Both the position numbers and the translations under genes were made by a program. From positions 1-28,682 of the forward strand of contig CAZOLK010000051.1 of assembly GCA_964580325.1 (NCBI GenBank): DNA of 28,682 nt, written 5' to 3'. Positions 1 through 23,910 of the stretch are shown here, one piece after another. Position 1 is the stretch's first letter. Every line of letters starts with the position of its first letter. This DNA comes from an uncultured Verrucomicrobiota bacterium. GTDB taxonomy: Bacteria; Verrucomicrobiota; Kiritimatiellia; CAYTQP01; CAZOLK01. The notes beneath the pieces were generated by a model that did not search any database, had not been told where the DNA came from, and worked only from the letters and a program-made list of their open reading frames with translations.

Positions 1-505
1 GATCCTGAACGTCGGCGGCCGGGCCCTCTGAGCGGCGGCGCGGGGGCGCCGGCCTGGGGCGTGATGCGGTCCGTCTGCGACTGATGCGTCGCATGGCGCC
101 AACACCGGCCGCGGCCTTGAATTTGCTGATGATCTCGTCTGCTACCCGATCCAGGTTGCTGCTGACCGTTCCGTCCGGTTTGGCGATATAATCGAACGCG
201 CCCAGTTCCAGCGCTTCGAACGTGGTTGATGCGCCGGTGTGGGTCAACGACGAAATCATGACCACCGGACAGATCTTCTCCTCGTTGACGATCTGTAGCA
301 CGCTCAACCCGTCCAGCTTGGGCATGTTGATGTCCAGCGATAACACATCCGGTTTCATTTCGCGGGTTTTAGTGACCGCATCCTCACCGTCGCGTGCATA
401 CCCGATCACCTCGAATGCGGGATCTTTTTCAAGCATTTTGATCAAAGTGCGGCGCATGAGCGCGGAATCATCCGCCACCAGAACTCTGATTTTTTTGTCA
501 GCCAT
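1..505 (-). CDS. cheB: CheB-like response regulator, 5' part only (receiver domain plus linker); gene runs off the left edge
   Basis: Minus-strand ATG at 503-505 follows an AT-rich leader. Translation reads MADKKIRVLVADDSALMRRTLIKMLEKDPAFEVIGYARDGEDAVTKTREMKPDVLSLDINMPKLDGLSVLQ...FDYIAKP. The receiver has the DD pair, the phospho-acceptor Asp in DINMPKLDG and the Lys in AKP. It is followed by a KFKAAAGVG linker resembling the CheB REC-to-methylesterase linker. No stop occurs before position 1. The methylesterase domain itself is not visible. Confidence 0.6.
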   Translation of the reverse strand, partial: MADKKIRVLVADDSALMRRTLIKMLEKDPAFEVIGYARDGEDAVTKTREMKPDVLSLDINMPKLDGLSVLQIVNEEKICPVVMISSLTHTGASTTFEALELGAFDYIAKPDGTVSSNLDRVADEIISKFKAAAGVGAMRRISRRRTASRPRPAPPRRRSEGPAADVQD

Positions 506-693: not shown

Positions 694-2670
694 TTATTCC
701 GCGCTGTCCTTATCTGGAATCTCTTTTTTGGCGGTTGACTTGGCACGTGATCGCGAGCCGTTCTTCCGAACCGGCTGTTTCGGCGGTTTGGCAGGTTCCG
801 CGGCCTTGGCTTCCGCCTTGGTGCGGGACTGGTGCAAAATGCTTTCCACATCCAGGAACACGATCATGCGCTTGCCGTCATCCACCTTCGCAATGCCGGA
901 AATGAAACGGTCCTTGCCATCGCCATCCACGGCTTTGGGCGGCGGCTCCACGTCGCGGTTGGCGATGTTCAACACCTGGCTCACGCTGTCTACACGCAGC
1001 CCGGTCTTGGTGCCGTCCAGGTCGACGATGATGATCCGTGTGCGATCATCCGTATCCACCGCGGGCATGGCAAAATGCGACCGCAGGTTGATCACCGGGA
1101 TCACCTCGCCGCGCAGGTTGGTCACACCCTCGACAAAGGCCGGAACGCGCGGAATGCGCGTGATTTTGGTGTAGCGGTCGATCTCGCGGATCTGCGCGAT
1201 CGGCACGCCAAACTCCTCCGCGCCCAGCTTGAACGTGACCAGCAACTGCTCGTCCATCTCGCGCTTCTTCTGCCCCTCTTCGTTCTTGTCAACGACCGCT
1301 ATGTCGCCATTGCCATTGAGCGATTCCTCGACGACCTGCATATCTTTCGACTGCAGCAACTTGCCCGAATCCAGAATCATGATCAACCGCTCGCCATCGT
1401 TGAGCTTGGCAATGCCGGCCAGCTCCGCGTTCTGACTATCGCTCAATTGCGGCGCCGGATCGGTGCACTCGTTGGGCACATTCAGCACTTCATTGACATG
1501 ATCCACGACCAGCCCCAGCAGCGTGCCGTTGGTGTCTACCACCACGATGCGCTGGTCTTCGGCAATAGCGCCGGCCACCATGTCTTCAAATCGCTGCTGG
1601 GTATGAATCACATCATCCAGCAGCGGCGCCACAACGCTCTTGAACGCACTGGCGGCTGCCTCGGCATCCTGGTTCTTGTTCAGAAAATCGGCCACGGTTT
1701 TCTGTGCTTTTTCGTTGCTGGCGCGCAGGTGCGTGATGCACTCGGTCAGCTCCTCGCTGGAACTACTCACCTGGCTCAACCAATGGCGCAGTTTTTCAGG
1801 CGCATGGGTCTTGGGCGCATCCACCTCGGGGTTCTCGCTCCAGGTGACCAGGGCCTCTTTCCACAAGCCGTAACCTTGGCGCAGACGCTCGCAGCAGGCG
1901 CGCAACTCATCAGCCAGCAGCGGCTGATTCATGACCAGGCGCAGATCCACGATGGGCAGCAGCTTGCCGCGCACCGTCAGCACGCCCAGGAGATAGCTGG
2001 GCGCTTCCGGAATCTGGCGTGCCGGTTTGACGCGCAGAATCTCGCGTACCTTGTCGATGGGGAACGCATACTCTTCGCGCGCCACCTTGAATGTCACCAT
2101 CTGGGTGATGTCCTGGGTGGCCTGGTCGCTGACTTCGTTGAGCTGTTCCTGAACCGCACTGCCTTCGGCGCGCGCCTGGGCTGCCTGGATCTGCTCCAGG
2201 TTAGCCTTGCACACTTCGACCGCGTTGAGCACAATGATGATCCGCTTGCCGTCCTCCAGCTTGACCACGCCGTCGAGATACTCTGAACTGACCTCGCCGA
2301 TCACGCTGGGCGGCGGCTCCATATTGGAGGCGGAGATGCGGTCGACCTGCCTGACCCGGTCCACGCGCAAGCCGGTTTTCTGACCGTGCAGGTCAATCAC
2401 CAGCAGACGCGTTCGATCCGTCTCATCCACGCGCTCCATACCGAAGCGCGTGCGCATGTCGACAATGGGCAAGACCGTACCGCGCAAGTTGGCCACTCCG
2501 TCCACATATTCCGGAGTCAAAGGAACACGGGCGATATCCGGAGGTCGGATAATCTCTTGGATATCCATGATATCAAACCCGAATTCTTCGTCCCCGAGCG
2601 AGAAGGAGACCAGTTGCATTTCGTCTTTCTGGGTCTTGACCTCGTCTAATTGCTCGGTTGTATTTTCCAT
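694..2670 (-). CDS. Multi-CheW scaffold protein with three CheW-like domains and a Lys/Ala/Pro-rich basic C-terminal tail
   Basis: The 658-aa ORF contains three segments of the form LVxFxLG(D/A)EE(F/Y)G(F/V)xI...IxxVPxxPxxVxGVxNLRGxV(L/I)P(I/V)(I/V)(D/N)(M/L)R, which matches the CheW fold signature. The middle domain is split by an insertion of about 110 aa. The C-terminus is AKAAEPAKPPKQPVRKNGSRSRAKSTAKKEIPDKDSAE. Confidence 0.85.
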   Translation of the reverse strand: MENTTEQLDEVKTQKDEMQLVSFSLGDEEFGFDIMDIQEIIRPPDIARVPLTPEYVDGVANLRGTVLPIVDMRTRFGMERVDETDRTRLLVIDLHGQKTGLRVDRVRQVDRISASNMEPPPSVIGEVSSEYLDGVVKLEDGKRIIIVLNAVEVCKANLEQIQAAQARAEGSAVQEQLNEVSDQATQDITQMVTFKVAREEYAFPIDKVREILRVKPARQIPEAPSYLLGVLTVRGKLLPIVDLRLVMNQPLLADELRACCERLRQGYGLWKEALVTWSENPEVDAPKTHAPEKLRHWLSQVSSSSEELTECITHLRASNEKAQKTVADFLNKNQDAEAAASAFKSVVAPLLDDVIHTQQRFEDMVAGAIAEDQRIVVVDTNGTLLGLVVDHVNEVLNVPNECTDPAPQLSDSQNAELAGIAKLNDGERLIMILDSGKLLQSKDMQVVEESLNGNGDIAVVDKNEEGQKKREMDEQLLVTFKLGAEEFGVPIAQIREIDRYTKITRIPRVPAFVEGVTNLRGEVIPVINLRSHFAMPAVDTDDRTRIIIVDLDGTKTGLRVDSVSQVLNIANRDVEPPPKAVDGDGKDRFISGIAKVDDGKRMIVFLDVESILHQSRTKAEAKAAEPAKPPKQPVRKNGSRSRAKSTAKKEIPDKDSAE

Positions 2671-2724: not shown

Positions 2725-4677
2725 TTAACCATTCTGCAACTCATCCGCCTGCGAAGCGATATCTTCGACTGCCTGGGCGATTTCCTGGGCTGCCTTGGAA
2801 CCCTCTTCGGAGGCCACGGCTGCCTCGGAGGAGGCGCGGTTCATCTGCTCGGCCGCGGAACTGATCTGCTCGCTCGCCTTGGCTGCCTCTTCCAATGCTT
2901 TCAATGATTCCTGAGCGCCCTGTTCAATCTCGCTGATGTTTTCGTCCAGGATAGAGATATCTTTGCCGATCGATTGCAGGTTGCTTGAGGAAATACGCGC
3001 ACGTTCTACTTCCTGGGCCGCGGTCTTGCCGGACAATTCGATATCGCCGGCCACCTTGTCGATCTGCAACTGGATCGCACGCACCATATCCTTGATCCGG
3101 TCCGCGTTCTCACTGCTCTCGTTGGACAGGGAGCGGATGTCGCCGGCCACGACAGAGAAACCGCGGCCGTATTCACCGGCGCGCGCTGCTTCCACGTTGC
3201 CGTTGACCGCGAGCATGTTGGTCTGAACCGTAACCATCACAATGGCGTCCACGATCTTGTCGATGGCCCGGGTCCGGTCACTCAATTCCTGTACGTTCCT
3301 AGCCGAACTGATCGAAGATTCCGCGGCATTGCCGATTTCTTCGATCAGGTTCTCCACATTCGTACAGTTGCGCTCCAGCAACTCGCGAATGGAATTCACC
3401 CGCTCCACGCCGACACGTGCGCGGTCGGACATACCCTTGGATGCGGCATTGAGTTTTTCACCCAGTTCCATAGAGGTCTGCGCAGATTTACCCTGTTGCG
3501 CCGCAGCCTTGCTGATCTGTTCGATGGCAGCCGCGATCTGGGTGGCGGCCGCACGCACTTCTTCGGCGTTGGCTGACAACTCCTCGGCGCTGGCAGCCAG
3601 TTCTTCGGCCGATTTCTGCGCGTTGGTCGACGTTTTCAGCGTTTCCGCCTGGTCGTTCAGCATGCTGGCTGCATCGCCCATTTCGGTGAACGCCTTGGCT
3701 TGCTCCTGGACCGCCTTCAACGCTTCGTTACCGGCCGATGACGCTTCTTCCGAGGCTGAGGCGATTTCCTCCGCGCCTTTCAGATAAGCGGCAGCCCCGG
3801 CATTGGCCTCTTCAGCATTTTGCAAAATTTCCTGGGTTCCGTCCATCACCTTGGCAAAATCGTCGACAATCTGGCTCAGGTCACTGTTGATGACCTTGGC
3901 TTTTTCGACTTCTTCCTGCCCTTTTTTGCCGGCAGCTTCGGCATCGTTGGCCACCACACGGACTTGCTCTTGGATCTCGTTGACCACGTCCTGGATGCCG
4001 CGCGCACTCTTCTCGCTGATCTCGGCCAGGTTGCGCACCTCGTCGGCCACCACCGCGAAACCTTTGCCATGCTCACCGGCGCGCGCCGCTTCAATGGCCG
4101 CGTTCAACGCCAGCAAGTTGGTCTGGTCCGCGATGCGCGCCACCGCGTTTACGATCTTGCCAATCTCGTCGGACTGGCGTTCCAGTTCCTGGATCATCTT
4201 GGCCGAGTCGATGTTAGCCTTGGCCGCGGTCTGCACCCCTGCGATCAAGCCTTCAATCTCGCTCGTCGTGGTTTTAATCAAATCCTGCAGTCGCTTGCAG
4301 TTCTTGATCGATGTTTCGGCGCGTTCATTGGCCACGGTAGCGGATCTATCGATCTGGTTGATCGCCGCCCTGGACTCTTCCGCGGCCGCGGAAGCCTGTT
4401 CCGCGCCTGATGCGATTTGCTGCATGGTTTTTTCAAGTTCATCGATAGCGCCCCCCGCCTGGGTCACCGCGCTGCTGACCTGCGAGGTGGCTACCGTTAA
4501 TTTCTCAGCCACGGCCTGGGCCCGGGCCAATGTACGTGCGCGAGCGCGCTCCTCGGCTTGACGCCGTGCGGCCAAGCGACCATCATCTCTTTCTTTCGGT
4601 TCATTAGAGCCGGATCCCACCTTCCCTCTTACGGGCTCATTTGGAGCGGCAAGTGTCTTCGTCATTACTTCCTCCAC
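2725..4677 (-). CDS. Soluble methyl-accepting chemotaxis protein with two tandem MCP signalling (MA) domains
   Basis: The 650-aa ORF has no hydrophobic transmembrane segment. Two highly conserved receptor hairpin-tip motifs are present: [35 protein letters not shown] and [36 protein letters not shown]. Each is embedded in a long A/E/Q-rich heptad coiled coil. Confidence 0.85.
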
Positions 4678-4771: not shown

Positions 4772-4787
4772 TGCATAAAGCGTGCCG
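4772..4787 (-). promoter_or_regulatory. Candidate sigma54 (-24/-12) promoter for the MCP-CheW3-CheB operon
   Basis: Minus-strand sequence cGGCACG-CTTT-aTGCA matches the consensus TGGCACG-N4-TTGCA, including exact GG-N10-GC spacing. It lies about 95 nt upstream of the MCP ATG at 4677, and the divergent gene encodes a sigma54 activator. Confidence 0.55.
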
Positions 4788-4827
4788 ATATGCGATTCTG
4801 GCAACAAAAAAAATGCGCCACCCGGCA

Positions 4828-4880
4828 ACACGCCCTATCTCGCACATGAACACGCCCTATCTCGCACATGAACACGCCCT
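4828..4880. repeat. 22-bp tandem direct repeat (2.4 copies) in the divergent intergenic region; candidate enhancer/UAS
   Basis: The unit ACACGCCCTATCTCGCACATGA occupies 4828-4849 and is repeated exactly at 4850-4871, with a partial third copy at 4872-4880. It lies 40-100 bp upstream of the sigma54 promoter in minus-strand orientation. Confidence 0.8.
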
Positions 4881-5046
4881 TAGCCCGTTGTCATCGCATC
4901 ATGCCCAAAGCTGGTTACTTATTGACCAGGGTGGTTAGAAAAGTACCGGTCGGCATGCTTTTTGCCGGTTGGAAAATATACTTCTTTACGCTTTACATTT
5001 GTTTTTTGCACATTTTTGTGTTAATAAATATTTATGATAAATAAGT

Positions 5047-6660
5047 ATGAGTTCGGTTGTTTTTGTTTTTTTGCCGATTAGTGTTATGGAAACCGCAATA
5101 CTATTGATCGAAGGTAATCGTGTATCTGCGGCCATGTTTCGCGAAATGCTGGCTTCTGCGGAATACACGTTGACTTGGGTTCCTGACGGGTTACAGGGAT
5201 TGAAGTTGGCCCGGGAAAACAATTTTGACATGGTCTTCGTCGATATCCAACTGGCTGGCACGGATGGTCTCGAATTGCTGCGCAATCTGCGCCGCCATTG
5301 CCCCGCGTTGACGATCGTGGTTATTTCCGCCCATATCGACAGCGCAGCTATCATAACCGCCACCCGCTTTGGCGCCTACGATTACTTGGAAAAACCGATC
5401 GATCACGAGAACTTGATCCGACTGATTGATCGCGTGCAAGGCAAGATCGATGACCGATCTGACCTGGCTGTCGGCCTCGACGAACACAAATCCACGCTGG
5501 TTGGTCAGAGCCGAACCATGCGCACAGTATATAAGGAAATAGGCCGCATCGCAGCCCTGCCTGTCACGGTGCTGGTCAACGGTGAAACCGGAACTGGCAA
5601 AGAACTGGTGGCGCGCGCCATTCACGAATTCAGCGACCGCGCCGACCAACCTTTTGTGGCCATCAACTGCGCCGCGATCCCCGAATCGTTGCTGGCCAGT
5701 GAATTATTCGGTCATGAACGCGGCGCTTTTACCGGCGCTCATACCGCGCGCAAAGGGAAATTCGAACAGGCGGACGGCGGCACCCTGTTCCTGGACGAAA
5801 TCGGCGATATGGACCACCACCTGCAAGCGCGGATATTGCGTATCCTAGAGGATCGTTCGTTACAACGCCTCGGCGGCAATGGTCGTTCCACGCGCATCGA
5901 TGTGCGCATCATCTCCGCCACCCACCGCAACCTACCAACCATGATTCAAGACCATACGTTCCGCGAAGACCTCTACCATCGCCTGGCCGTCTCGGTCATT
6001 ACCCTGCCGCCATTGCGCGAGCGCCGCACCGATATCCCGCTATTGATCGATTTTTTTCTCAAGCGCTACATGAAGCAGTTCGGCATGCATTGCCCAGGCA
6101 TGGATTCGCGCGCAGTGGAATACCTGAGCCGCAAAACGTGGTCCGGCAATGTGCGCGAACTGGAAAACTACGTACGCAGCGCATTGGTACGTGCGCGCGG
6201 TTTGGCTATCACCTATGATTTGCTGCGCGAAATCGATGGCATCCTGGCAAAAAACAGCCCGAAACAGAAGATCACCGTTCCATCAGCCCTGCCCGCGGCT
6301 GAACAGACGGCTGAACCAGTCGAAACGCCTGCCATGACCGCACTGCCCATACCTGCAAAACCCCGGCAAAGCGAGCCTGCCCGTGACCCAGCCGATGAAA
6401 ATGAAGATTTATTAGATAGATGGGTACGAAAAATGCTTGATCAAGCTGAGCATGACCATGTACGGCGTAGAGCTATGGACTGCCTGGATCGTGTGCTGAT
6501 CCGCTATGCCATGCATGAGTCTCGGGGCAACCGCACTCGGGCCGCCAAGATGTTGGGCATCAACAGGCTAACTTTGCGCAAACGGCTCAGTGATCTGGGT
6601 ATCGAAGTGAAAAGCGTTTTGAAAGTACGTGGCATGGAACAGATGGTATTGGATATTTAA
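5047..6660 (+). CDS. Sigma54-dependent transcriptional activator (enhancer-binding protein of the NtrC family): receiver domain, AAA+ sigma54-interaction domain, C-terminal HTH
   Basis: The AAA+ domain carries the Walker A motif GETGTGKE and the GAFTGA motif (ELFGHERGAFTGAH). An N-terminal receiver domain contains DIQLAGTDG, and the C-terminal HTH reads RTRAAKMLGINRLTLRKRL. The start could instead be the METAILLIEG Met at 5086. Confidence 0.9.
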   Translation: MSSVVFVFLPISVMETAILLIEGNRVSAAMFREMLASAEYTLTWVPDGLQGLKLARENNFDMVFVDIQLAGTDGLELLRNLRRHCPALTIVVISAHIDSAAIITATRFGAYDYLEKPIDHENLIRLIDRVQGKIDDRSDLAVGLDEHKSTLVGQSRTMRTVYKEIGRIAALPVTVLVNGETGTGKELVARAIHEFSDRADQPFVAINCAAIPESLLASELFGHERGAFTGAHTARKGKFEQADGGTLFLDEIGDMDHHLQARILRILEDRSLQRLGGNGRSTRIDVRIISATHRNLPTMIQDHTFREDLYHRLAVSVITLPPLRERRTDIPLLIDFFLKRYMKQFGMHCPGMDSRAVEYLSRKTWSGNVRELENYVRSALVRARGLAITYDLLREIDGILAKNSPKQKITVPSALPAAEQTAEPVETPAMTALPIPAKPRQSEPARDPADENEDLLDRWVRKMLDQAEHDHVRRRAMDCLDRVLIRYAMHESRGNRTRAAKMLGINRLTLRKRLSDLGIEVKSVLKVRGMEQMVLDI

Positions 6661-6665
6661 TTTAT

Positions 6666-7343
6666 ATGGATGTGCTGATTGTAGACGACGAGGCCGACTT
6701 CATCGATGTGTGCATACGCCTGCTCGCGCGTGAACCTTACCGTATCGAAGGTGCGCAATCAGGTGAACAGGCGCTGGCCAAGCTGGCAGACAAGACCTAT
6801 CATGTACTTGTCAGCGATATTCGTATGCCCAATATGGATGGCCTTGCACTCATGCAAAAGGTTCAGTGGCTCTACCCGGAAACAGCCATCGTTGCCATCA
6901 CGGCCCATGGCGATATCGACCTTGCTGTACAGTGCATGAAATACGGCGCGCTGGATTTTCTGCAAAAGCCTGTGGGCTCAGCTAAACTGCGCGAAACACT
7001 GGCATCCGCCATGCAATCCCGCCGCACTTCGGATATGCTTGCAGAAAACCGCGATAGCCTGGATCATCAGGTCTCTACCCGTGTCATGGAGGTGTTTATC
7101 GAGGATACGGCCCGTGTCCTGGACGAGATGGAAATCCATATCCAACGCCACGAATACGGCAACGTGCGCGAACTGGCCCATTATCTCAAGAGCAGTTGCT
7201 GTACGATTTACCGCATGGGCATGGACATGGTCGAACTCTGTGTGCAGCTCATGCACATGGATGAGTACGTCACAGAGCAGACCTGGCAACTCAAACGGTG
7301 TAACCTGCTAGACCTTTTTCAAGCTGTTCCACAAGGGAAATAG
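6666..7343 (+). CDS. Receiver domain fused to a C-terminal Hpt (histidine phosphotransfer) domain
   Basis: The N-terminus MDVLIVDDEADF...VLVSDIRMPNMDGLAL...AITAHGD is a canonical receiver. The C-terminal NVRELAHYLKSSCCTIYRMGMDMVELCVQLMHMDE resembles the Hpt HxxKG helix. The start codon sits 5 nt after the EBP stop. Confidence 0.75.
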   Translation: MDVLIVDDEADFIDVCIRLLAREPYRIEGAQSGEQALAKLADKTYHVLVSDIRMPNMDGLALMQKVQWLYPETAIVAITAHGDIDLAVQCMKYGALDFLQKPVGSAKLRETLASAMQSRRTSDMLAENRDSLDHQVSTRVMEVFIEDTARVLDEMEIHIQRHEYGNVRELAHYLKSSCCTIYRMGMDMVELCVQLMHMDEYVTEQTWQLKRCNLLDLFQAVPQGK

Positions 7344-7384
7344 CATGGATATGAAACGTTTATATATAGAAAGAGGAGGTTGAG

Positions 7385-8266
7385 ATGGAACCACACGCCT
7401 ATCTAAAATCAGGCACCAACGAGTTGAAGATCATGGAGTATTCGACCAGCGGCGTTCACTTTGGACTCAACATTCTGAAGACCAGCCGCGTGGTCAGCCT
7501 GCCGCCCAAGCTGCACCAGCCCGGCAATATGCACCCCGCGGTCATTGGCCTGATGAACGATCACGGGATCATCGTGCCCGTGATCGACCTGGCCCTGTTC
7601 TTGAAGTTGAAAGATAAACATCCGGACGAACACGAACTGCGCGGGCGCATCCTGATCACCGAGTTCTTCGGCCAGGTCAACGGCTTTCTGATCGATGCTG
7701 TGCACTATGTTCACACCATCATGTGGGAACGTGTATTCGACGCGGTCGAGATCATGGGCAACCTGGTGGGCAAATACGTGATTGGCATTGTGCGGCCCGA
7801 CGAAGAAAAAATGATCCTGCTGCTCGATTACGAAAAGATCATTCTCGATTTGAGCCCCGTCATCGAAGCCAATGAGCGGCAGAAAATGGACCATGAGATA
7901 CACGGCGAAAACCGCAAATTGCTGATTGCCGAGGATTCCACCGCAGTACGCGACATGTTGGCCGTGGAACTGAGCGATATGGGCTTTGAGGTGCTGATCG
8001 CCAAGGACGGTCGGGAAGCATGGCGCATCTATGAACAGAACCGCGATCTCGCCATGGTCGTTTCCGATGTGGAAATGCCCCAACTGGAAGGGTTGAGCCT
8101 GACCAAAATGATCAAGGACGACAATCCCCAGATGCCGGTCATTGTCTACTCGTCCATTGGCGACATTGGTATGAAAAAGCGGGCCGAAGACGTACAGGCC
8201 GATGCCCATGTCACCAAGCTGAATGTCAAAGAATTGATGGACGTAACGCGAGAACTGTTGTCATGA
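7385..8266 (+). CDS. cheV: CheV-like coupling protein (N-terminal CheW domain plus C-terminal receiver)
   Basis: The N-terminal part is a CheW-like fold, and the C-terminal KLLIAEDSTAVRDML...MVVSDVEMPQLEGLSL...VIVYSS is a receiver. The RBS GAGGAGG lies 6 nt upstream. A 4-nt ATGA overlap joins this gene to the next. Confidence 0.85.
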   Translation: MEPHAYLKSGTNELKIMEYSTSGVHFGLNILKTSRVVSLPPKLHQPGNMHPAVIGLMNDHGIIVPVIDLALFLKLKDKHPDEHELRGRILITEFFGQVNGFLIDAVHYVHTIMWERVFDAVEIMGNLVGKYVIGIVRPDEEKMILLLDYEKIILDLSPVIEANERQKMDHEIHGENRKLLIAEDSTAVRDMLAVELSDMGFEVLIAKDGREAWRIYEQNRDLAMVVSDVEMPQLEGLSLTKMIKDDNPQMPVIVYSSIGDIGMKKRAEDVQADAHVTKLNVKELMDVTRELLS

Positions 8267-9009
8267 GCAAAGCCGAACAACCAGCCCAGGACCCTTTTCT
8301 GACCTACCTGGTCCATGACCTGGAACCGGCCATGGCCTCGTTTCAAACCTTGCTCCGCTTGCTCAAGCAGAAACGCTACGCCCCAGACAACCCGATGCAC
8401 GGCAAGCTGGTGCATAGTTGCGACGCGGCCCTGCAATTCAGCCTGGGGCTGTTGCGCGACATGCTCGAATTCTCCAAGATGAAACGTATGGACTGGCCTG
8501 TACATCCCGCATCCTTTGCCTGGTCGGGCCTGTTCGACGAATGCCTGGCGCTCGCGTCAGTGCTCGCCGCGGACCGGGAGGTCGCCATCAACGGCCATAG
8601 CCTGGATACGGCGGATGAGTTCATGTCCGATGCCTGCATGATCAAACGCATTGTGGTCAACCTGCTGACCAATGCCATCAAAAACGTCGACCGCGGCGAC
8701 AAAGTGCAGTTGCGCTATACCAGAACCGACAAAGGCGCACTGATCCAAGTGGAGAACAAGGTGGACGGCATGGACGAGGCGTTTTGCAACAGAATTTTCG
8801 ATGAGCATGTGCAGTTGCCTGCGCACGATGGCAAGCGCGCTTATCGCGGCGTCGGCCTGGGCTTGAGCTATTGCCGCGCCGCCTGCGAAAGATTGCGCGG
8901 TAGCATTGCCGCCGAACTGCACGACCAGGGACGGCGCTTGCGTATGGTTCTCGAACTGACTCCATGGCCATCGCAAAGCAACGGTCCTGTGGATGGAGGC
9001 GAAGACTGA
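8263..9009 (+). CDS. Small cytoplasmic histidine kinase (HisKA plus HATPase_c only, no sensor domain)
   Basis: The H-box is LTYLVHDLEPAMASF, the N-box is VVNLLTNAIKN and the G-box is YRGVGLGLSYCRA. The 248-aa protein has no TM or sensor segment. Confidence 0.8.
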   Translation: MSKAEQPAQDPFLTYLVHDLEPAMASFQTLLRLLKQKRYAPDNPMHGKLVHSCDAALQFSLGLLRDMLEFSKMKRMDWPVHPASFAWSGLFDECLALASVLAADREVAINGHSLDTADEFMSDACMIKRIVVNLLTNAIKNVDRGDKVQLRYTRTDKGALIQVENKVDGMDEAFCNRIFDEHVQLPAHDGKRAYRGVGLGLSYCRAACERLRGSIAAELHDQGRRLRMVLELTPWPSQSNGPVDGGED

Positions 9010-9010
9010 A

Positions 9011-10183
9011 ATGCTGCACCAGATCAACATCCTGCATATCGAAGACAGCCCAATCGACAGCGCCTTGATCAAAGGTATGCTAGAATTGGACGAGCAGCAG
9101 CGTTTCACCTTGGAAAACGCCAAAAGCTTTGCCGAAGCTTGCCAGTTATTCATCCGAAACAAGTACTCGTTGATCCTGTGCGACTTGAACCTGCCCGACA
9201 TCATGGGCCGCGACACCGTGATCAACTTGCAGGAATTCGCAAAGTCAACGCCGATCATCATCCTGACCGCCAATGACGATGAGGCATTCAGTCGTGAAAT
9301 GGTGCAACTGGGTGTACAGGATTACCTGGTCAAAGGACATTTCAACTCTGATCTGCTCAAGCGCGTGATCTACTATGCCATCGAACGTTTCGAGGTGTTG
9401 AAAAAACTGGAACGCAAACAGGTCCAACTGGCCCATGCCGGGCGCCTGATCTCGCTGGGCGAAATGTCCGCTGGCCTGGCCCACGAATTAAACAATCCCC
9501 TGCAGATCATCCGCTCCGCCATCGATTTAATTGAAGTCACCTTTCGCGAACCCGACTGTGACGATGACGAGATCCAGTTGATGATCGATCGCATCAAAAA
9601 ACATGTCACACGGGCCAGCAATATCATCAACAACATGCGCATGTTTGTGCGCCAGGGCAACATTGGCGAAACCCATACGGTCAACCTGCGCGAAGCCATC
9701 CTGCAGGCCATGAACTTCATGCGTCAGCGTCTCTACCAGCATAATATCGATTATCGCGAGGAATTGGCGCCCAAACCCTGGCCGGTCAAAGCCCATACGC
9801 AACGCTTTGAACAGGTGGTGATCAACTTGGTCAGCAATGCTTTTCACGCCATCGAATCCAAGGTCTATCAACGTGGAGAACCGCGCCAACTGACCATTAC
9901 CCTGCAAAACATAAGGCAACTGCCCGCTTATATGACGCAGTCGGACAGCAAACAAGACGCGTGGGTGCTGATGGAAGTGAGCAATAACGGCAGCCCCATG
10001 AGCGAGGAGCAGCAAATGAACTGCTTCGAACCGTTTTACACGACCCGTACCGAAGGCATTGGCCTGGGCCTGTCCATCGCTTCCTCGCTGATCAGGGATT
10101 TCAACGGCATCATCGATGTCTGTGCGCGCGATGACCTCACCGTGTTTGGCGTAGCCCTGTCGGCCATAGGACAAACAGATTGA
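9011..10183 (+). CDS. Hybrid kinase with N-terminal receiver followed by HisKA and HATPase_c (REC-HK)
   Basis: The receiver reads INILHIEDSPID...LILCDLNLPDIMG...IIILTAND. The H-box is GEMSAGLAHELNNPL, and the ATPase motifs are LVSNAFHAIE and GIGLGLSIASSLI. The start was chosen at the Met directly after the upstream stop (TGAAATG), which has GGAGG about 12 nt upstream. The ORF-track start at 8993 is an alternative. Confidence 0.8.
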   Translation: MLHQINILHIEDSPIDSALIKGMLELDEQQRFTLENAKSFAEACQLFIRNKYSLILCDLNLPDIMGRDTVINLQEFAKSTPIIILTANDDEAFSREMVQLGVQDYLVKGHFNSDLLKRVIYYAIERFEVLKKLERKQVQLAHAGRLISLGEMSAGLAHELNNPLQIIRSAIDLIEVTFREPDCDDDEIQLMIDRIKKHVTRASNIINNMRMFVRQGNIGETHTVNLREAILQAMNFMRQRLYQHNIDYREELAPKPWPVKAHTQRFEQVVINLVSNAFHAIESKVYQRGEPRQLTITLQNIRQLPAYMTQSDSKQDAWVLMEVSNNGSPMSEEQQMNCFEPFYTTRTEGIGLGLSIASSLIRDFNGIIDVCARDDLTVFGVALSAIGQTD

Positions 10184-10228: not shown

Positions 10229-10741
10229 TCAGAACAAACATTCATGATCTATGGCGACCACAACCCGGCGTCTGCGTTTGCCATAGGTGATGATCCCTTC
10301 CATGGGTTCGACGAAATCATCGATGCTCTTGATCCGACCGTCGAACACCGCGGTGTTGTTGAGCGTGTGCTTTAAACACGCGTTTTTCCAGCCACCAGTA
10401 AAGATGACCTGACGCAAATAGCGGAACTTGACCAGGATCGCACGCAACCGCTCCGACTGGGCATTGACGTTATCGCCGCTGAAACAGGGCACAAAATCGA
10501 CACGGTCGCTGAACTCCCGCAGAAAGTCCGGCAACTCGGTATCGTTCTGTTGCAAGCCAAGTATAATAACCGCCATCTCACGGAAGAGCTGACTCTTGAT
10601 TTTGCGCTTCAAGAGGGTAATATACCCCTTCGGATCCGTGATCACTTTACTGCACGCCAGCGCGAACTCATCGGGATGGACCACCACGTAGGCTGTGACA
10701 GGCCCCTCGTCCACACCTGATCTGGTCCGATCACTCATCAT
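10229..10741 (-). CDS. Hypothetical 170-aa protein translationally coupled to cheR; family not recognised
   Basis: The ORF is intact and overlaps the CheR stop by ATGA, so it belongs to the same operon. I recognise no motif; it does not match CheD, CheC or CheX signatures by eye. Confidence 0.5.
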   Translation of the reverse strand: MMSDRTRSGVDEGPVTAYVVVHPDEFALACSKVITDPKGYITLLKRKIKSQLFREMAVIILGLQQNDTELPDFLREFSDRVDFVPCFSGDNVNAQSERLRAILVKFRYLRQVIFTGGWKNACLKHTLNNTAVFDGRIKSIDDFVEPMEGIITYGKRRRRVVVAIDHECLF

Positions 10742-11589
10742 GCTTTCCGATAATAATACTTATGCTTTACGCGAAAATCAAGATCCGGGACATAGTTGGT
10801 GATCGGATAAGCCAGGCTGAGAAACAGGTAACCGCCCGGCGCCAGGCTCTCGTACAACGCACGGATGACCCGTTGCTGCGCATCCATGCTGAAATAGAAA
10901 AGCACATTCTTACAGAAGACAAAGTCAAAATTGCGCATGGCGCGCAAACTGGCAAAATCGGTCAGGTTCAAACAAGAGAACTGGACCATCTGCTTGACGA
11001 TCGGTTTGACCGCATAACCTTTGACGCCGTAATCGCAATACCGGTAGCTGAACGATTCGGGCAGCGTGCGCTCCAGCTCGCGGCTGTACACGCCTTGCCG
11101 GGCGATCTCCAGGTAATGGCGCGAGATGTCCGTGGCCGCAATCATGTAGCGCCACGTCTCGTTCCGCCCTGCGTCAAGCATCAGCATGGCCAGCGAATAG
11201 GGCTCTTCGCCCGTGGAACAGCCGGCGGACCAGGCCTTCAGCAACTGGCTGCCACGAACACGCTTGGTCTGCTTGACTTCAGGCAGACACTCCTCGACAA
11301 ACACTTCCAGTTGACGCTGATCCCGAAAAAAAAAGGTTTCGTTGACGATCAGCAACTCCAGGAAATACTGGAACTCACCCTCGAGTCGCTGGTCCGCGGC
11401 CAGCAATTGATAGTATTCGTCAAAGGTCAGATCAAGTGCGCTCATGCGCTTTTGCAGACTGCTGGACAGGCCATATTGTTGCTTGGCCGCCATCTCGATG
11501 CCGGTGCGCATCTGTACCAGGGCGCCGACGGTTTCGATATCTTCAGCAACAGGTTTACGATAAGGCATAATATATTCCTTTGGAAACAA
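10738..11589 (-). CDS. cheR: CheR-type chemoreceptor glutamate methyltransferase
   Basis: The motifs ETFFFRDQ, the SAM-binding WSAGCSTGEEPYSLAM and DFVFCKNVLFYF are CheR hallmarks. Confidence 0.9.
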   Translation of the reverse strand: MFPKEYIMPYRKPVAEDIETVGALVQMRTGIEMAAKQQYGLSSSLQKRMSALDLTFDEYYQLLAADQRLEGEFQYFLELLIVNETFFFRDQRQLEVFVEECLPEVKQTKRVRGSQLLKAWSAGCSTGEEPYSLAMLMLDAGRNETWRYMIAATDISRHYLEIARQGVYSRELERTLPESFSYRYCDYGVKGYAVKPIVKQMVQFSCLNLTDFASLRAMRNFDFVFCKNVLFYFSMDAQQRVIRALYESLAPGGYLFLSLAYPITNYVPDLDFRVKHKYYYRKA

Positions 11590-11852: not shown

Positions 11853-11947
11853 TTAAATAAATAACCTTTTCGTTCTTTTTTTATCATGCTAAAACCAAAG
11901 GATCATATGGAAGTTGTCATCATATGTTTTGGGAATAAGCGGATGTG

Positions 11948-11997
<50 letters not shown>

Positions 11998-12042
11998 CAT
12001 TTTTCCCACGCTTTATTTCACCAAATGGACGGACTTGAGGAC

Positions 12043-13218
12043 ATGATGAAGAATACGGAATTATACAGACAGCTTGTTGCACATCACCGCCGGCAATACC
12101 AGTGCGACCCTTATCTAGTGGCCTATGCGCCCGGTCGCGTTGAGGTACTGGGCAATCATACCGACTACAACGAGGGCTTCGTGCTCTCCGCTGCCATCGA
12201 TACCGGCATTTTATTCGCGCTTTCCGAATCGGTTCGGGACCATTGCCGGCTTTTCTCGGTCAACATGAACGAACAGGTGACGTTTACCCCCGAATCCATT
12301 GAGCCGGACCTCCAGGCCGCGGCAGGCTGGAGCAATTACAGCAAAGGGGTTTTTAAACTGATCCAGGAGCGCCGGAAGCCGGATCGCTGTTTTGACGCGA
12401 CTTTGTGCAGCAACCTGGCCATGGGCGCCGGTTTGTCCAGTTCGGCGGCCATTGAAATATCCACGGCTCTGGCCTTGAGCACGTTTTATGGTTTGGACAT
12501 CGATCTCCTCGATCTAGCGAAAATCGGTCAGCGCGCGGAGCGCGAGTACGCAGGTGTCAGTTGCGGGCTGCTCGATCAACTCACCAGCTTGTTCGGTCGG
12601 CACAATGCCCTGGTGTACACCGATTTTCGCAGCCTGAACGTGAAACCCGTGAACATGCCGGAGCAGATCGTGTTCCTGCTTTGCAACACCAAGGTCAAGC
12701 ATAGTCTGGTGGATTCGGAGTACAATGAACGCCGCGCTTCATGCGAAAAGGCGGCCGCATTCTTCAATCAAGCGCGCGACCGCGAGATCAAGGCCCTGCG
12801 TGACGTGACTTGGGCGGAATGGGAAGCGCACCAAAACGCTATGGATCCCATGCTGGCCAAGCGCGCCGCTCATGTGATCGGTGAAAACGAGCGCGTGCGC
12901 AAAGCGCTCGATCTGCTCGAACACGATGACATGAAAGCGTTCGGTGAGTTGATGTTCGCCTCGCACGAAAGTTCGATTACGTATTTCGAAAACTCATGCC
13001 CTGAGCTGGACTTCGTGGTCTCATGCGCCCGTGACATACTGGGCGTGCTGGGCGCACGCCTGTCCGGCGGCGGTTTCGGCGGCAGTGCAATCCTGCTGCT
13101 GGAAAAACAGAACCTGGACAGCGTAGCCATGGCTCTGGAAAAGGCTTACGTGGAAAAGATCGGTCATCCCGCGGAAATCCGCACCGTACTACCTTCGGAC
13201 GGCGCCCGCATGGTTTGA
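12043..13218 (+). CDS. galK: Galactokinase (GHMP kinase family)
   Basis: The GalK signature PGRVEVLGNHTDYNEGFV and the GHMP ATP loop MGAGLSSSAA are present. The start was taken at the ATGATG preceded by GAGGA. The longer ORF-track N-terminus (from 11914) overlaps the tRNA-like fragment and is probably not translated. Confidence 0.85.
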   Translation: MMKNTELYRQLVAHHRRQYQCDPYLVAYAPGRVEVLGNHTDYNEGFVLSAAIDTGILFALSESVRDHCRLFSVNMNEQVTFTPESIEPDLQAAAGWSNYSKGVFKLIQERRKPDRCFDATLCSNLAMGAGLSSSAAIEISTALALSTFYGLDIDLLDLAKIGQRAEREYAGVSCGLLDQLTSLFGRHNALVYTDFRSLNVKPVNMPEQIVFLLCNTKVKHSLVDSEYNERRASCEKAAAFFNQARDREIKALRDVTWAEWEAHQNAMDPMLAKRAAHVIGENERVRKALDLLEHDDMKAFGELMFASHESSITYFENSCPELDFVVSCARDILGVLGARLSGGGFGGSAILLLEKQNLDSVAMALEKAYVEKIGHPAEIRTVLPSDGARMV

Positions 13219-13348
13219 ACACGCCGCTATGCCGTATTTCACCGTATCAACACGGCTAGACGGCTAGACCGGAAACATCACGTGGCGACGTCATGATGTA
13301 CATGATTTGTGCGGGGGATGAGTCGATGGAATCGATGGATTCTGATAG

Positions 13349-14641
13349 CTAGCGTAATTCATCGCGCACGAACTGGTAGAGCGCTTCCTGGCCAAAGTTG
13401 CCGGACTTGAGGACCAGCAGCAGGTTTTCACGGTCCGTGGGGAAGCAATAGGGAACGCCCGGCGCCAAGGGCAGGCCCACTTCAACGGCGCGGATGTCCA
13501 GCTTGCGGCAGACCGCACCCGAGGTTTCACCGCCGGCCACAATCAGCCGCCCGACCGCGCCGCGCTCCACCAGAGTTCCGGCTATGCCGGCCAGCGTATC
13601 GGCAATGCGCTCGCCGGTCCGGACACTGTTCAAACCCTGATCCGCGCCCATTTGCTGTATGCGCTCGATGCCGGCCCGGTCCATGGACGGGGCCTGGACC
13701 AGCGCACCGCCAGCCTGGTTCAACGCCGCTTCTGCCAGGTCCAGAACGTTGGCTGGATCATAGGTTCCTTGCACAATGGCCGGGATATCCAGGGTTAACT
13801 TTTTAAAGTCATGGGCTTCGGCATGTTGGGTCTGGCGCGCCGAGGTGGGTGACTGGCTGCCGGAAACGACCAACGTGGCGCGCGGCATAGCTTGCAGGCG
13901 CTTGCTGAAATCGAGCGGCTTGGTCTGGCACCCGTGGGCCGCGGGCAATGCTGCGGTGATGCCCGAGCCGCCGCTGATCAGGGGCCAGCCCCTGACCGCC
14001 ATAGCAATCCGGTCCAGGTCGTCCTGACAGACCGCGTCGGTCACCAGCCAGACCGCGCCTGCATCGACCAATTGCTCCAGTTTCTGGCCCAGGTCCGGCC
14101 CGCGCACCGTTTCCAGCGGAACCAGCTCTACCTTGCGGTCGGTCTGATATTGCAGCCAGCGCACCAGGTTGGCGTCGGTCATGGGGTTGAGCGGATGGTT
14201 GCGCAGAGCGGATTCGGACAGCAGTTTCCGGCCGACAAATAAATGGCCCTGGTACACCGTGCGTCCATTGACCACCAGGGCCGGGCAGACGATCGAAGCC
14301 CTGGCCAGCGGCAGTGCGCCCAGCGCCGCGTCAAGGGTCGGCCCGATATTGCCTTCGCGTGTGGAATCGAATGTCGAGCAGTACTTGATCTGGATTTGTC
14401 CCACGCCCAGGTCGCGCAGCAAACTAACGGCGCGCGATGTAGCCGCGGCAGCCAGCTCGGGCGCAACCGAGCGGTTCTGAGTTCCGATGACCACGGCCTG
14501 AAACGCGTCCAGCGCAACCGGCGGATGGGCCAGGTCATTTTCGTTCATGATCAACAGCGTGCGTGCACCTCGCTCGGTCAGCATGCCGGCCGCATCCGTG
14601 GCGCCTGTATTGTCGTCGGCGATAATGCCCCATTTCAGCAT
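13349..14641 (-). CDS. Four-carbon acid sugar kinase family protein (DUF1537; OtnK/YgbK-like 3-oxo-tetronate kinase family)
   Basis: The N-terminus GIIADDNTGATD and the C-terminal nucleotide-binding region VAGGETSGAV match the DUF1537 kinase family. Confidence 0.75.
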   Translation of the reverse strand: MLKWGIIADDNTGATDAAGMLTERGARTLLIMNENDLAHPPVALDAFQAVVIGTQNRSVAPELAAAATSRAVSLLRDLGVGQIQIKYCSTFDSTREGNIGPTLDAALGALPLARASIVCPALVVNGRTVYQGHLFVGRKLLSESALRNHPLNPMTDANLVRWLQYQTDRKVELVPLETVRGPDLGQKLEQLVDAGAVWLVTDAVCQDDLDRIAMAVRGWPLISGGSGITAALPAAHGCQTKPLDFSKRLQAMPRATLVVSGSQSPTSARQTQHAEAHDFKKLTLDIPAIVQGTYDPANVLDLAEAALNQAGGALVQAPSMDRAGIERIQQMGADQGLNSVRTGERIADTLAGIAGTLVERGAVGRLIVAGGETSGAVCRKLDIRAVEVGLPLAPGVPYCFPTDRENLLLVLKSGNFGQEALYQFVRDELR

Positions 14642-14656
14642 GGACTTGTCCTCACC

Positions 14657-15292
14657 TTACATTTGACGGTTGAGCAATTCGTTGACTTGCGCTTCGTTCA
14701 GCGCTTCACCGCCCTGGCGCACCCAGAGCCACTGGCGGCAGTTTTCCTCCAGCTCCTCCAGAATGCCCAGCGCCTTGCGCCCGGTCGGCCCCATAACCAG
14801 TACGCCATGGTTGCGCAACAACAGGGCACGGTGCTGTTGGACGCCTTGGGCAATAACCTGAGCCAGTTCCGCACTGCCTGGCGGGTGATAGGCCAGCACA
14901 GGGACGTGTCCGGCACGCATGACGAACTGCGGCGTGACCGACGGCAGCCGGTCGCCGACAGCCAGAAAAGTCGATGCGGCTATGGCGTGGCTCGGATGCG
15001 CATGCACCACACAGCGTACATCCGGACGCTGACGCAGAATCGCCAGGTGCCCGCCCTTCTCCTTGCTGGGACGCCGGTCATTGAGCGCGCAGCCATCGAG
15101 CGTCAACAGGGACAGGTTATCTATACGGATATCGGCCATACCCACGCCGGTCGGCGTAACCGCGCAGCGCCCGTCTTCGCCCGGCAGGCGGATGCTGGCG
15201 TTGCCGCTGGTCGACGTGCCCAGCCCACTGCGCGCCAGCGCGTGGCAGACATCCACCAACTCGCGCAAGGCTTGTTCGTCGCCCGTGTTCAT
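14657..15292 (-). CDS. Class II aldolase/adducin-family protein (OtnC/FucA-like)
   Basis: The motifs GNASIR, PSKEKGGH and VVHAHPSHA are typical of class II aldolases. The start was taken at MNTGDEQ, which overlaps the upstream stop by ATGA. The longer ORF-track N-terminus is unlikely. Confidence 0.7.
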   Translation of the reverse strand: MNTGDEQALRELVDVCHALARSGLGTSTSGNASIRLPGEDGRCAVTPTGVGMADIRIDNLSLLTLDGCALNDRRPSKEKGGHLAILRQRPDVRCVVHAHPSHAIAASTFLAVGDRLPSVTPQFVMRAGHVPVLAYHPPGSAELAQVIAQGVQQHRALLLRNHGVLVMGPTGRKALGILEELEENCRQWLWVRQGGEALNEAQVNELLNRQM

Positions 15293-15978
15293 TCCGTATC
15301 CCTGAAAGACGCGGCCCGCAGCTCGCGCAAAGTCGCGGCCAGGCGCTGCATGGCCGGTTGCGGACTGGAATAGATCGGGACCGCCCGAGTATCCTCGGGC
15401 AATTGTTCGACGATCCGCGCCATGGAAGCCTGAGCCAGGCATACGGCATCCACATCGCGCATCAGGTTTTCCAGCGCAGCCTTGACCAATCGGTCGTGGG
15501 CAGCCATGTCACCGGTGAACAGGGCGTCGTACGCACCTTCAACCAGGCACTCGACCACGACGGTATCGCGCCCTTCTTCGTCGGCCAGGTCACGGGTCAA
15601 CGCAACACTGGGCCGCAACGTAGCCGGATTGGTGGCGATCAAGCCGTTGCGCGCATGCTGTTGCACAGCGCTGCGCAGCATGGGATCGTCGATGCAGAGC
15701 ACCGGGATCGACGTCATCTGCCGCGCCAGCGGGGCGCATGGCGAAAGCGACGAGCAGGTGAGTTGAACCACACCGGCGCCGGCATCGGCCGCGGCCGTGA
15801 TGTGGTCGCACACCCGCCGGGTAATGGCCGGAGTCAAGCCGCCGGCCGCGAGCAGGCGCTGGATCAGGCTGTCGTCAGCCACATGGAACAGCTTGACGTC
15901 CGGAATGGTTTCGCACGCCAACTGATCGAACGCGTCACAGACCTTCCAGAGCGAATGCAACAGGCAAACCTTGATCAT
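15289..15978 (-). CDS. Asp/Glu/hydantoin racemase-family protein
   Basis: The fold-level resemblance is to the Asp/Glu racemase / arylmalonate decarboxylase superfamily (MIKVCLLHS..., paired Cys-containing segments). The start was taken at the Met that overlaps the upstream stop by ATGA. Confidence 0.5.
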   Translation of the reverse strand: MIKVCLLHSLWKVCDAFDQLACETIPDVKLFHVADDSLIQRLLAAGGLTPAITRRVCDHITAAADAGAGVVQLTCSSLSPCAPLARQMTSIPVLCIDDPMLRSAVQQHARNGLIATNPATLRPSVALTRDLADEEGRDTVVVECLVEGAYDALFTGDMAAHDRLVKAALENLMRDVDAVCLAQASMARIVEQLPEDTRAVPIYSSPQPAMQRLAATLRELRAASFRDTE

Positions 15979-16616
15979 GAAGCGTCTCCCCCGGGCTCCT
16001 GCTTGGGCAGCATGATTTCGATAAAGCCTTCGGTCTGGTCCAGGGTGAAGGGCATGAGCTGGGTGCGGAACGGTACATAGCCGTAGCAATCGCCGCTCTT
16101 GCGAATCTGAGCAGCTTCATAGGCAGTGTTGACGCGACGCTTGTACTCGTCCTTGACATCCTCGAACACAGCAGTCAGGCCGTTGCCAATGTAGTTGTCG
16201 GCTGTTTTGGCGTGGAGGTCGTAAGCGGTGCGGGTCAGCGCGCCTACGGTCTGGGCATAGAGCCAGTAGCGCAAGGTCTCCTGCCATGCTCCGCGCTGTA
16301 CCATGACCCAGGGCGTGACCTGGATCAGCATGGTGACGGCATAGTTCAACTCGCCAGTCCAGGCGCCGATTTGATCGTAGCCGAGGGCCTTATCCAGGAT
16401 GACCCGGGCCAGGGCCTGGGCCGCGTTGGTCGGCTCGCTAGTATCGCCGCCGTCCATGGCCGCGATGGTGTCGGCGACCTCCATAAAGGCCTTGCGGTAA
16501 TGGGTCGATATTTCAGCGGTCGCATTTTCAGCGATCAGCGCATCCGCGATTTCATTGGCCAATGCTTTCACTTTTTCATCAATATCCGGCCTGTTGTCGT
16601 GTGGTATATAGGGCAT
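15975..16616 (-). CDS. Hypothetical 213-aa protein, family not recognised, translationally coupled to the racemase-family gene
   Basis: The ORF is intact with RBS AAGGA and overlaps the downstream gene by ATGA. It has no signal peptide and no motif I can assign. Confidence 0.5.
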   Translation of the reverse strand: MPYIPHDNRPDIDEKVKALANEIADALIAENATAEISTHYRKAFMEVADTIAAMDGGDTSEPTNAAQALARVILDKALGYDQIGAWTGELNYAVTMLIQVTPWVMVQRGAWQETLRYWLYAQTVGALTRTAYDLHAKTADNYIGNGLTAVFEDVKDEYKRRVNTAYEAAQIRKSGDCYGYVPFRTQLMPFTLDQTEGFIEIMLPKQEPGGDAS

Positions 16617-16642
16617 ATCGTTTTCCTTACTATTCTACTTTT

Positions 16643-19316: not shown

Positions 19317-19919
19317 ATCGATAACTCCTCAAGCTGGTTACAACCTAATAGCCCACAGAAAAATATCATGCCATTTTGAGGGCCAACTATCCCATCCAGC
19401 GGCGTTGCAAAAACTCGAAATATTCCAATATTCCTGCGTTTTTGCGCCTTGTTGGACTGGGCAACTTGACTCCACAAAATTCATCTTATTTTCCCGTAAA
19501 CCATAAAGTCACCATCATGCGTCAACAATTCACAAACTTCTACCGCGATTCTGCAGTTTTTTGCGCAGAATACGCAAATTCTTAAATTGCGGATTTTATC
19601 TTGCCACCCGCGACTTGACATACGGCTGATGCCTATTGCACTTCTACCAGCTTCGATGCGCAGGGACGCCTGCTGCTTTCGCTTGAGGTGGACGGCGCTT
19701 TCCAACTCTGCCGCATGGACCACCGCAACGGTAACGACCTGGTTGGCGTAAACCTGGAAAACGAGACCCATGTTTTATTCAGCCCGCCGGAAGCTTCTCA
19801 CACGATGGACAACTGGTGCTGTTCACTTCGGATTGCGAAGGATCGCCGAGTCCGTTTTTGGTGGAGCTTTAGGGGAACCCCACTTGTTATCGGCCAGGGC
19901 ACTGATATTTTTCATTGCC

Positions 19920-21056: not shown

Positions 21057-21082
21057 GTAAATTCTCCGGAATAGGTTGTGAT

Positions 21083-23894: not shown

Positions 23895-23910
23895 CTGCCT
23901 GCTCCTTCTT

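Follow-up and report, generated by a model that had tools for sequence, protein, structure and literature searches.

Chemosensory systems of the F9 class are defined by DosM, a receptor with a double signalling domain, and CheW3, an adaptor with three CheW domains (PMC9321776). In Vibrio cholerae these two proteins build cytoplasmic two-layered arrays, the physiological role of which is not known, and the genes of the class are usually arranged in the order DosM-W3-B-.-R-Y-A; partial sets that lack CheA and CheY are on record for 8 of 2,781 species, and a table of F9 gene orders covering 72 species has no CheV in any of them (PMC9321776). Here we analysed an entire contig of 28,682 nt from an uncultured Verrucomicrobiota bacterium (CAZOLK010000051.1, assembly GCA_964580325.1), hereafter called the window, to which all coordinates refer. 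It carries a chain of four genes coding for a receiver-phosphotransfer protein (REC-Hpt), CheV, a small sensor-less histidine kinase (HK248) and a receiver-first histidine kinase (REC-HK), and the predicted products of the surrounding genes place this chain within a cytoplasmic F9-type chemosensory gene cluster. As in cluster I of V. cholerae, the window encodes a sensor-less DosM with two signalling domains, a triple CheW protein, CheB and CheR, all of them soluble; it differs in the addition of CheV, two HisKA-type kinases, REC-Hpt and a sigma-54 activator, and in having no CheA or CheY on the contig.

There are precedents for chemosensory (Che) pathways whose signal goes to classical kinases or to activators of the NtrC type (PMC3868531, PMC3147164). 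The Che3 pathway of Rhodospirillum centenum (CheA3-CheS3-CheY3) likewise has a receiver-first HisKA kinase in a Che-like cluster, where it works together with the chemosensory proteins, and exerts control over something other than motility (PMC3868531), but it belongs to the ACF class, works with a CheA-REC hybrid, has CheY as its output and lacks CheV, Hpt and a sigma-54 activator. In Myxococcus xanthus, the chemosensory system Che3 and the classical HisKA kinase CrdS jointly control the NtrC-type activator CrdA (PMC3147164); CrdS, in contrast to the window kinases, is a sensor kinase equipped with an input region, and the system includes CheA3 but neither an Hpt step nor a CheV. The tripartite kinases TorS, ArcB and BarA offer a likeness of another kind. 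HK248, whose best NCBIfam match is TorS (positions 463-680), and REC-Hpt, which covers TorS 684-882 in the NCBIfam alignment, match consecutive parts of that protein and together look like the cytoplasmic part of a tripartite kinase distributed over two genes; unlike its tripartite counterparts, the window kinase would be split by cheV, has no periplasmic or membrane sensor and lies within a chemosensory cluster. The beginning of the chain resembles the luxO-luxU pair, in which an Hpt protein feeds a sigma-54 activator and the Hpt gene directly follows the activator gene. In Rhodobacter sphaeroides, the kinase functions of a cytoplasmic receptor cluster are divided over separate proteins by a split CheA (CheA3/CheA4). 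These two proteins are CheA-family fragments (P1, P3-P5), whereas the kinase core in the window is of the HisKA type and not CheA H-kinase_dim/P4.

Each of the protein architectures in the chain is known, and the cluster belongs to the described F9 class. What is new is a clade of CheV proteins specific to DosM/CheW3 clusters, together with the conserved pairing of this clade with a small kinase carrying an HD.EP H-box; this pairing was found neither in the F9 catalogue nor by a full-text literature search. The reading that we favour, and to which we give an even chance, is that the four genes form the output branch of an F9-class cytoplasmic system, in which the kinase would be tied to the array via CheV and a relay would lead to the sigma-54 activator.

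The initial annotation had described four tightly chained genes directly after the gene of the sigma-54 activator, an enhancer-binding protein (EBP), and both the open reading frames (ORFs) and their junctions matched this description (Table 1). The EBP stop codon (6658-6660) and the ATG of REC-Hpt (6666) are 5 nt apart. A 41-nt gap containing an AGGAGG Shine-Dalgarno sequence separates the REC-Hpt stop (7341-7343) from the ATG of CheV (7385), the ATG of HK248 overlaps the CheV stop (ATGA, 8263-8266), and the HK248 stop (9007-9009) adjoins the ATG of REC-HK at 9011 (TGAaATG). An alternative in-frame ATG at 8993 would give REC-HK a 17-nt overlap with HK248; the start at 9011 is favoured because of a GGAGG at 8995-8999. 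A mini-ORF at 7345-7383 fills the gap between REC-Hpt and CheV, beginning 1 nt past the stop codon of the former and ending 1 nt short of the start codon of the latter, and overlaps the CheV ribosome-binding site; it could be a relay of translational coupling or be due to chance. Scans of the window for sigma-70 promoters and terminators gave background levels.

All of the domain calls made earlier were upheld by Pfam and NCBIfam, that of Hpt narrowly, as was the view that both kinases are free of sensor and membrane domains: a hydrophobic segment is absent from all four chain proteins (maximum Kyte-Doolittle 19-residue mean <=1.56), and neither HK248 nor REC-HK has room for a sensor domain. 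The five receivers attributed to this island were also counted here, namely those of EBP, REC-Hpt, CheV, REC-HK and a CheB cut by the contig start, and the canonical receiver residues are complete in REC-Hpt, CheV, REC-HK and CheB. A Logan contig from an independent assembly (L016) is 100% identical to the window across 4851-8945; found via a look-up with CheV, it is 4.1 kb long and does not reach beyond cheB.

Both hallmarks of the F9 class are present beside the chain. The receptor has two MCPsignal stretches within 650 aa and no transmembrane segment, and the CheW3 protein has four CheW stretches, its second domain being split by an insert. The receptor and CheW3 had been named at the outset, but the pair had not been recognised as the F9 signature. 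The genes dosM, cheW3 and cheB lie on the strand opposite to the chain, and cheR and the gene of a 170-aa orphan protein lie beyond its far end; the start codon of cheB is at nt 505, and its receiver residues are canonical. The DosM-W3-B order of the window is the same as in related loci. DosM is 50-56% identical to receptors beside CheW3 in seven of these, CheW3 is 36-43% identical to that of L005 and L010-L015, and CheR is 34-37% identical to that of L001, L004 and L012. The orphan protein (10229-10741) had no sequence match in Pfam, NCBIfam or PDB and no counterpart in the related loci. The CheW3 insert (window ~1560-1900, minus strand; residues ~255-365) is CZB-derived: it aligns with a CZB zinc-binding domain in the CheW3 of L015/L005 and has Y, K, N and Q for the four zinc ligands H, C, H and H, which are likewise missing from the CheW3 inserts of L011, L012 and L014.

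In the CheV of the window, the CheW-like and receiver domains are both above the Pfam cut-offs, and Asp228, Ser and Lys are present. The protein belongs to a clade (P0022-P0036) whose members are 59-65% identical to it (59-64% for the counterparts in the related loci), the next-best matches reaching <=52%. A genome scan with the single CheV sequence returned nothing, and its repeat with an alignment returned one locus. The clade was sampled in ten distinct loci: the window, L001, L004, L005/L015, L009 and L010-L014. Every member examined lies amid DosM/CheW3 orthologues or other che genes; in the fetched stretches of L004 and L009, DosM/CheW3 orthologues were not detected, and the genes found there instead were other F9-type genes (CheR, CheY, CheA, HEAT) in L004 and CheR, single receivers and a CheA in L009. 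An orthologue of HK248 directly follows CheV in seven of the ten loci (the window, L001, L004, L005/L015, L009, L013 and L014); in two of these the start of the kinase gene overlaps the CheV stop codon (ATGA in the window, GTGA in L005). In the loci that lack the kinase, the gene after CheV codes for REC-SpoIIE (L010), CheA (L011) or a HEAT protein (L012). The residues MPQLEG versus MPQMDG in CheV separate the two groups of loci, but this was discarded as a sign of coevolution, as the loci without the kinase appear to be one subclade.

A lone receiver follows the kinase in L001, L004, L013 and L014. These four receivers are orthologous to one another, and the window sequence closest to them is the REC-Hpt receiver (34% identity, 68 bits). 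In L004 a separate Hpt gene (Pfam Hpt, 48 bits) lies between the kinase and the lone receiver; a search for an unannotated Hpt in the gaps of L014 and L009 found none. The gene order of L001 reads CheW3-CheB-HEAT-CheR-CheY-CheA-HEAT/REC-CheV-HK-REC-CheA-REC/HK. A second kinase, with an HELNxP motif and a REC or PAS input, was encountered repeatedly, namely in L001, L013, L014 and L015. The suggestion in the initial annotation that the kinases take their input from the receptor/CheW3/CheV complex is backed by synteny as far as a functional link is concerned. In L009, a Riflebacteria locus, the receiver after the kinase (12014-12469) looks degenerate, with the N-terminus LIINSDKN and no clear phospho-Asp context, and falls outside the group of the other post-kinase receivers.

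Among the loci examined, the sigma-54 activator occurs only in the window. STAS/RsbW/SpoIIE partner-switching modules follow the CheV or kinase genes in L009, L011, L012 and L014, which suggests that the output there is sigma-factor control via partner switching, in place of the sigma-54 activator of the window. A gene for a ParA/MinD-like ATPase and one for a Hsp70/MreB-like protein of ~500 aa lie beside DosM in L005 (292-4569), L010, L011, L012, L013 and L015 and are absent from the window; they may have a role in array positioning or assembly.

The HisKA match of HK248 is under the Pfam cut-off of 26.9 bits, and its HATPase_c domain scored 54 bits (Table 1). A word-indexed search of 5.8 billion proteins with HK248 returned one close relative, P0002 on contig L001, which adjoins CheV. 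The six orthologues in the related loci are 232-248 aa long, are 33-38% identical to the window protein and all directly follow CheV. HK248 is the most divergent of the seven (33-38% versus 38-55% among the others) and differs in its C-terminal tail. The H-box HD[LIV]EP is nevertheless invariant in all seven (VH18D19LEP in the window), and the N box NLLTNAIKN and the G2 box GVGLGL are present, the family consensus of the latter being Y[RK]G[VI]GLGL. In HisKA proteins, kinase activity depends on an acidic residue after the His, and phosphatase activity on Thr or Asn at His+4 (PMC3510030). As all seven family members have Pro at His+4, and thus no Thr/Asn phosphatase motif, together with the acidic residue, the family looks like a kinase without phosphatase activity.

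The C-terminal domain of REC-Hpt was a borderline case. Against a Pfam gathering score of 24.6 bits for Hpt (PF01627), the full-length protein scored 22.9 bits, just below, and its C-terminal 106 aa scanned alone scored 24.8 bits (E 2.7e-5), just above. The motif AHYLKSSCC pointed out in the initial annotation is present, and its His172 (nt 7179-7181) aligns with the phospho-His of P0020 (AHSIKSS), of the Hpt protein of L004 (AHFIKGG) and of PDB 8pbw (HFLKGS). P0020, a stand-alone Hpt of 119 aa (Pfam Hpt, 54 bits), was the one genuine relative that HMMER returned when 1.84 billion representatives were searched exhaustively with the Hpt domain, the other match (P0019) being a spurious repeat protein; a word-indexed protein search with the 106-aa region gave no matches. 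AlphaFold2 modelled the domain alone as a four-helix bundle (pLDDT 75.7), and the top Foldseek matches in PDB were all Hpt proteins: HptB 7c1i (probability 0.99, TM-score 0.63), 8pbw and 3myf. A full-length REC-Hpt model made with AlphaFold2 without an alignment was discarded, as its receiver had a pLDDT of 30-45 and its Foldseek matches were meaningless. We accept the C-terminal domain as a very divergent Hpt; the earlier call came through narrowly, with 24.8 bits for the domain alone and an aligned His. HxxKS, which had been regarded as an oddity, is no such thing, since the bona fide Hpt P0020 has the same motif.

Numbered from the 8993 start, REC-HK has Asp64, His164 in HELNNP, the N box NLVSNAF, the G2 box GIGLGL and a variant G1 box, NNGSP. 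It aligns over its full length with LvrB of Leptospira (PDB 8vc9, E 2.7e-22; NCBIfam hybrid_RR_LvrB), which has the same REC-HisKA-HATPase order and differs in not being linked to chemosensory genes. The variant G1 box is comparable to NSGPP in the kinase 3a0r_A, which we take to be active and nucleotide-binding, and the idea that the Asp-to-Asn change inactivates REC-HK was dropped on account of that shared variant. The domain order, first thought to be unusual, is an established architecture that is seen in LvrB, and Che-like pathways have receiver-first kinases such as CheS3 (PMC3868531).

At the output end, the EBP has GAFTGA at residues 226-231 and an intact AAA+ domain and HTH. Its true start is likely Met14 (nt 5086), because the annotated start adds a hydrophobic extension of 13 residues. 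The sigma-54-like element listed in Table 1 lies ~95 nt upstream of the dosM start and is the sole match in the window that is both intergenic and correctly oriented. The 22-bp repeat stands 40-93 nt upstream of this element, in the divergent intergenic region adjoining the EBP gene, a position from which it is a possible activator binding site. The two could be a promoter and its enhancer site, an arrangement that is no more than suggestive and would be in keeping with a feedback on the array genes.

In the mechanism that we propose, the chain would be the output branch of the F9 system made up of DosM, CheW3, CheB and CheR. HK248, which supplies the DHp and CA domains, and REC-Hpt would be the two halves of a sensor-less kinase of the tripartite TorS/ArcB type. 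CheV, which is encoded between these halves and overlaps the start of the kinase gene, would most likely be the connector of HK248 to the DosM/CheW3 array, either by docking HK248 at the array or by serving as its receiver partner. We infer a phosphoryl path that starts at His18 of HK248, runs over Asp51 and then His172 of REC-Hpt and ends at a terminal receiver, for which the co-transcribed sigma-54 activator is the first candidate and the receiver of REC-HK the second, the two not being mutually exclusive; the relay probably feeds the activator. REC-HK would act as a receiver-gated bifunctional kinase/phosphatase (H-box HE..N) comparable to CheS3, and the output would be sigma-54-dependent transcription, possibly of dosM-cheW3-cheB. 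A bolder version, which we regard as quite unlikely, would make the CheV-tethered HisKA kinase an array-controlled kinase that works alongside CheA or replaces it in this F9 subclass. CheV would then take the docking role of P5, HK248 that of P3-P4 in dimerisation and catalysis, and the Hpt domain that of the phospho-His carrier P1, so that three genes would rebuild every CheA function from non-CheA parts. The array output would go to transcription, through sigma-54 here and through partner switching in the relatives, and not to flagella.

Several observations weigh against the proposed relay. REC-Hpt matches the Hpt profile only at borderline strength, and its Foldseek matches, with E-values of 0.2-0.4, are not significant. 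The EBP receiver has Glu22-Gly23 (nt 5110-5115) where CheY has the metal-binding Asp12-Asp13, a substitution overlooked in the initial annotation, and may therefore be a poor, inefficient phospho-acceptor; phospho-Asp66, Ser, Tyr and Lys are retained. Matches to the sigma-54 pattern number 9 in the window versus ~20 expected from shuffled sequence, which leaves the candidate element without statistical support. The three kinase-less loci (L010, L011 and L012) appear to be a single CheV subclade, so seven in ten is not a count of independent events, and the CheV-kinase linkage may go back to one or two evolutionary events only. The degenerate G1 box of HK248 had gone unnoticed in the initial annotation: it reads NKVDG (nt 8755-8769), as confirmed by the independent contig L016, versus DEGxG in all six orthologues, and ATP binding, hence the first relay step, may be impaired in this organism. 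HK248 might even have ceased to be a kinase, its DHp domain serving for phosphotransfer or as a sink or scaffold in the manner of Spo0B/ChpT while phosphate enters through REC-HK or a CheA. Its divergence within the family and its different tail would suit such a fate, as would the RetS-type atypical kinases among its PDB sequence matches. Its N box, G2 box, His18 and Asp19 are intact, however, and Asn at the G1 Asp position is also found in 3a0r_A, the next G1 position having Val for Gly; we consider that loss of kinase function unlikely.

CheA also bears on the proposed relay. L001, L004, L009 and L013 have the CheV-kinase pair plus one to three CheA genes, so these loci do not require the small kinase as kinase of the array, and in L011 a CheA fills the slot directly after CheV. 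The window contig stops in the B of the usual order DosM-W3-B-.-R-Y-A, so a CheA gene may lie beyond its end. An off-contig F9 CheA could then be the sole array-controlled kinase, as in Che3 of R. centenum, phosphorylating CheV, CheB and the receivers of REC-HK and REC-Hpt, and both HisKA kinases would act further down the pathway, modulating the sigma-54 activator either constitutively or under the gating of a receiver. Phosphorylation of a receiver domain of the hybrid kinase CheS3 by CheA3 (PMC3868531) and the joint control of the NtrC-like CrdA by CheA3 and CrdS (PMC3147164) lend support to such a scheme. Against it, the standard B-.-R-Y-A order is already broken by cheR, which lies at the opposite side of the cluster, and HK248 is without a receiver through which CheA could control it. 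Neither CheA nor CheY is encoded within the 28.7 kb of the contig, which ends inside cheB; an absence of CheA beyond the contig is thus unproven. Nor is there a CheA or CheY in the L015/L005 cluster (~12 kb, ParA-like gene through PAS kinase) or on the 15.5-kb L014 contig. We find this CheA-driven scheme tenable, though on the unlikely side. As the protein architectures are all common when taken singly, and signalling genes often cluster, the chain might also be an ordinary multistep phosphorelay that merely lies beside chemosensory genes, with CheV only an extra array adaptor and the kinases unrelated to it. Yet the kinase directly follows CheV of this clade in seven loci from different lineages (those named being Riflebacteria and Deltaproteobacteria), their codons overlap in two loci, and the lone close relative of HK248 among the 5.8 billion proteins is also beside CheV. 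Because this adjacency recurs, with start and stop overlapping in two loci, we hold fortuitous co-location to be very unlikely.

Table 1 Coordinates of the four-gene chain and neighbouring features in the window
Feature	Position	Strand	Evidence
cheB, N-terminal 168 codons (receiver domain)	1..505	-	six-frame translation MADKKIRVLVADDSALMRR..., cut at contig start
cheW3, 658-aa triple-CheW adaptor	694..2670	-	Pfam CheW 360.5 bits, 4 stretches
dosM-type soluble chemoreceptor, 650 aa, two MCP signalling domains	2725..4677	-	Pfam MCPsignal 204.9 bits, 2 stretches
Candidate sigma-54 -24/-12 element cGGCACGctttaTGCA	4772..4787	-	pattern match, 2 mismatches
22-bp perfect tandem repeat, 2.5 copies, AACACGCCCTATCTCGCACATG	4827..4880	.	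Tandem Repeats Finder score 108, 100% matches
Sigma-54 EBP (REC-AAA+-HTH_8)	5047..6660	+	Pfam Sigma54_activat 234, REC 84.7, HTH_8 39.1 bits
REC-Hpt phosphotransfer protein (Asp51, His172)	6666..7343	+	Pfam Response_reg 101.7 bits, Hpt borderline
12-codon mini-ORF MDMKRLYIERGG	7345..7383	+	direct sequence reading
CheV (CheW-like + receiver, Asp228)	7385..8266	+	Pfam CheW 74.1, REC 67.8 bits
HK248, sensor-less DHp-CA histidine kinase (His18)	8263..9009	+	HATPase_c 54, weak HisKA 19.6 bits
REC-HisKA-HATPase kinase (REC-HK)	9011..10183	+	Pfam REC 66.9, HisKA 46.1, HATPase_c 49.6 bits
170-aa orphan protein	10229..10741	-	start overlaps cheR stop by 4 nt
CheR methyltransferase	10738..11589	-	Pfam CheR 168, CheR_N 25.6 bits

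The rest of the contig holds genes of other kinds. A gene for a rubrerythrin/EncFtn-like cargo protein is immediately followed by one for an encapsulin shell protein (Linocin_M18, 214 bits); the pair occupies 20268-21637 on the minus strand and is unrelated to the signalling cluster. Two stretches, 11914-19477 and 21993-24846, are devoted to sugar metabolism and code for a galactokinase, a four-carbon acid sugar kinase-like protein (SBD_N/NBD_C), a class II aldolase, a 944-aa GH2 protein with a malectin domain and a DUF5696/GH129-like protein, which suggests a polysaccharide-degrading organism.

The conserved module of CheV, small kinase and receiver that is attached to DosM/CheW3 bears on how partial F9 systems could signal without CheA. 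Joined in the window to an Hpt protein and a sigma-54 activator, this module provides a concrete candidate route from F9 arrays to gene expression. The recurrence of the CheV-kinase pair in related uncultured bacteria hints at an undescribed route from arrays to gene regulation and, if CheV does control the kinase, chemoreceptor arrays could drive classical two-component kinases besides CheA.

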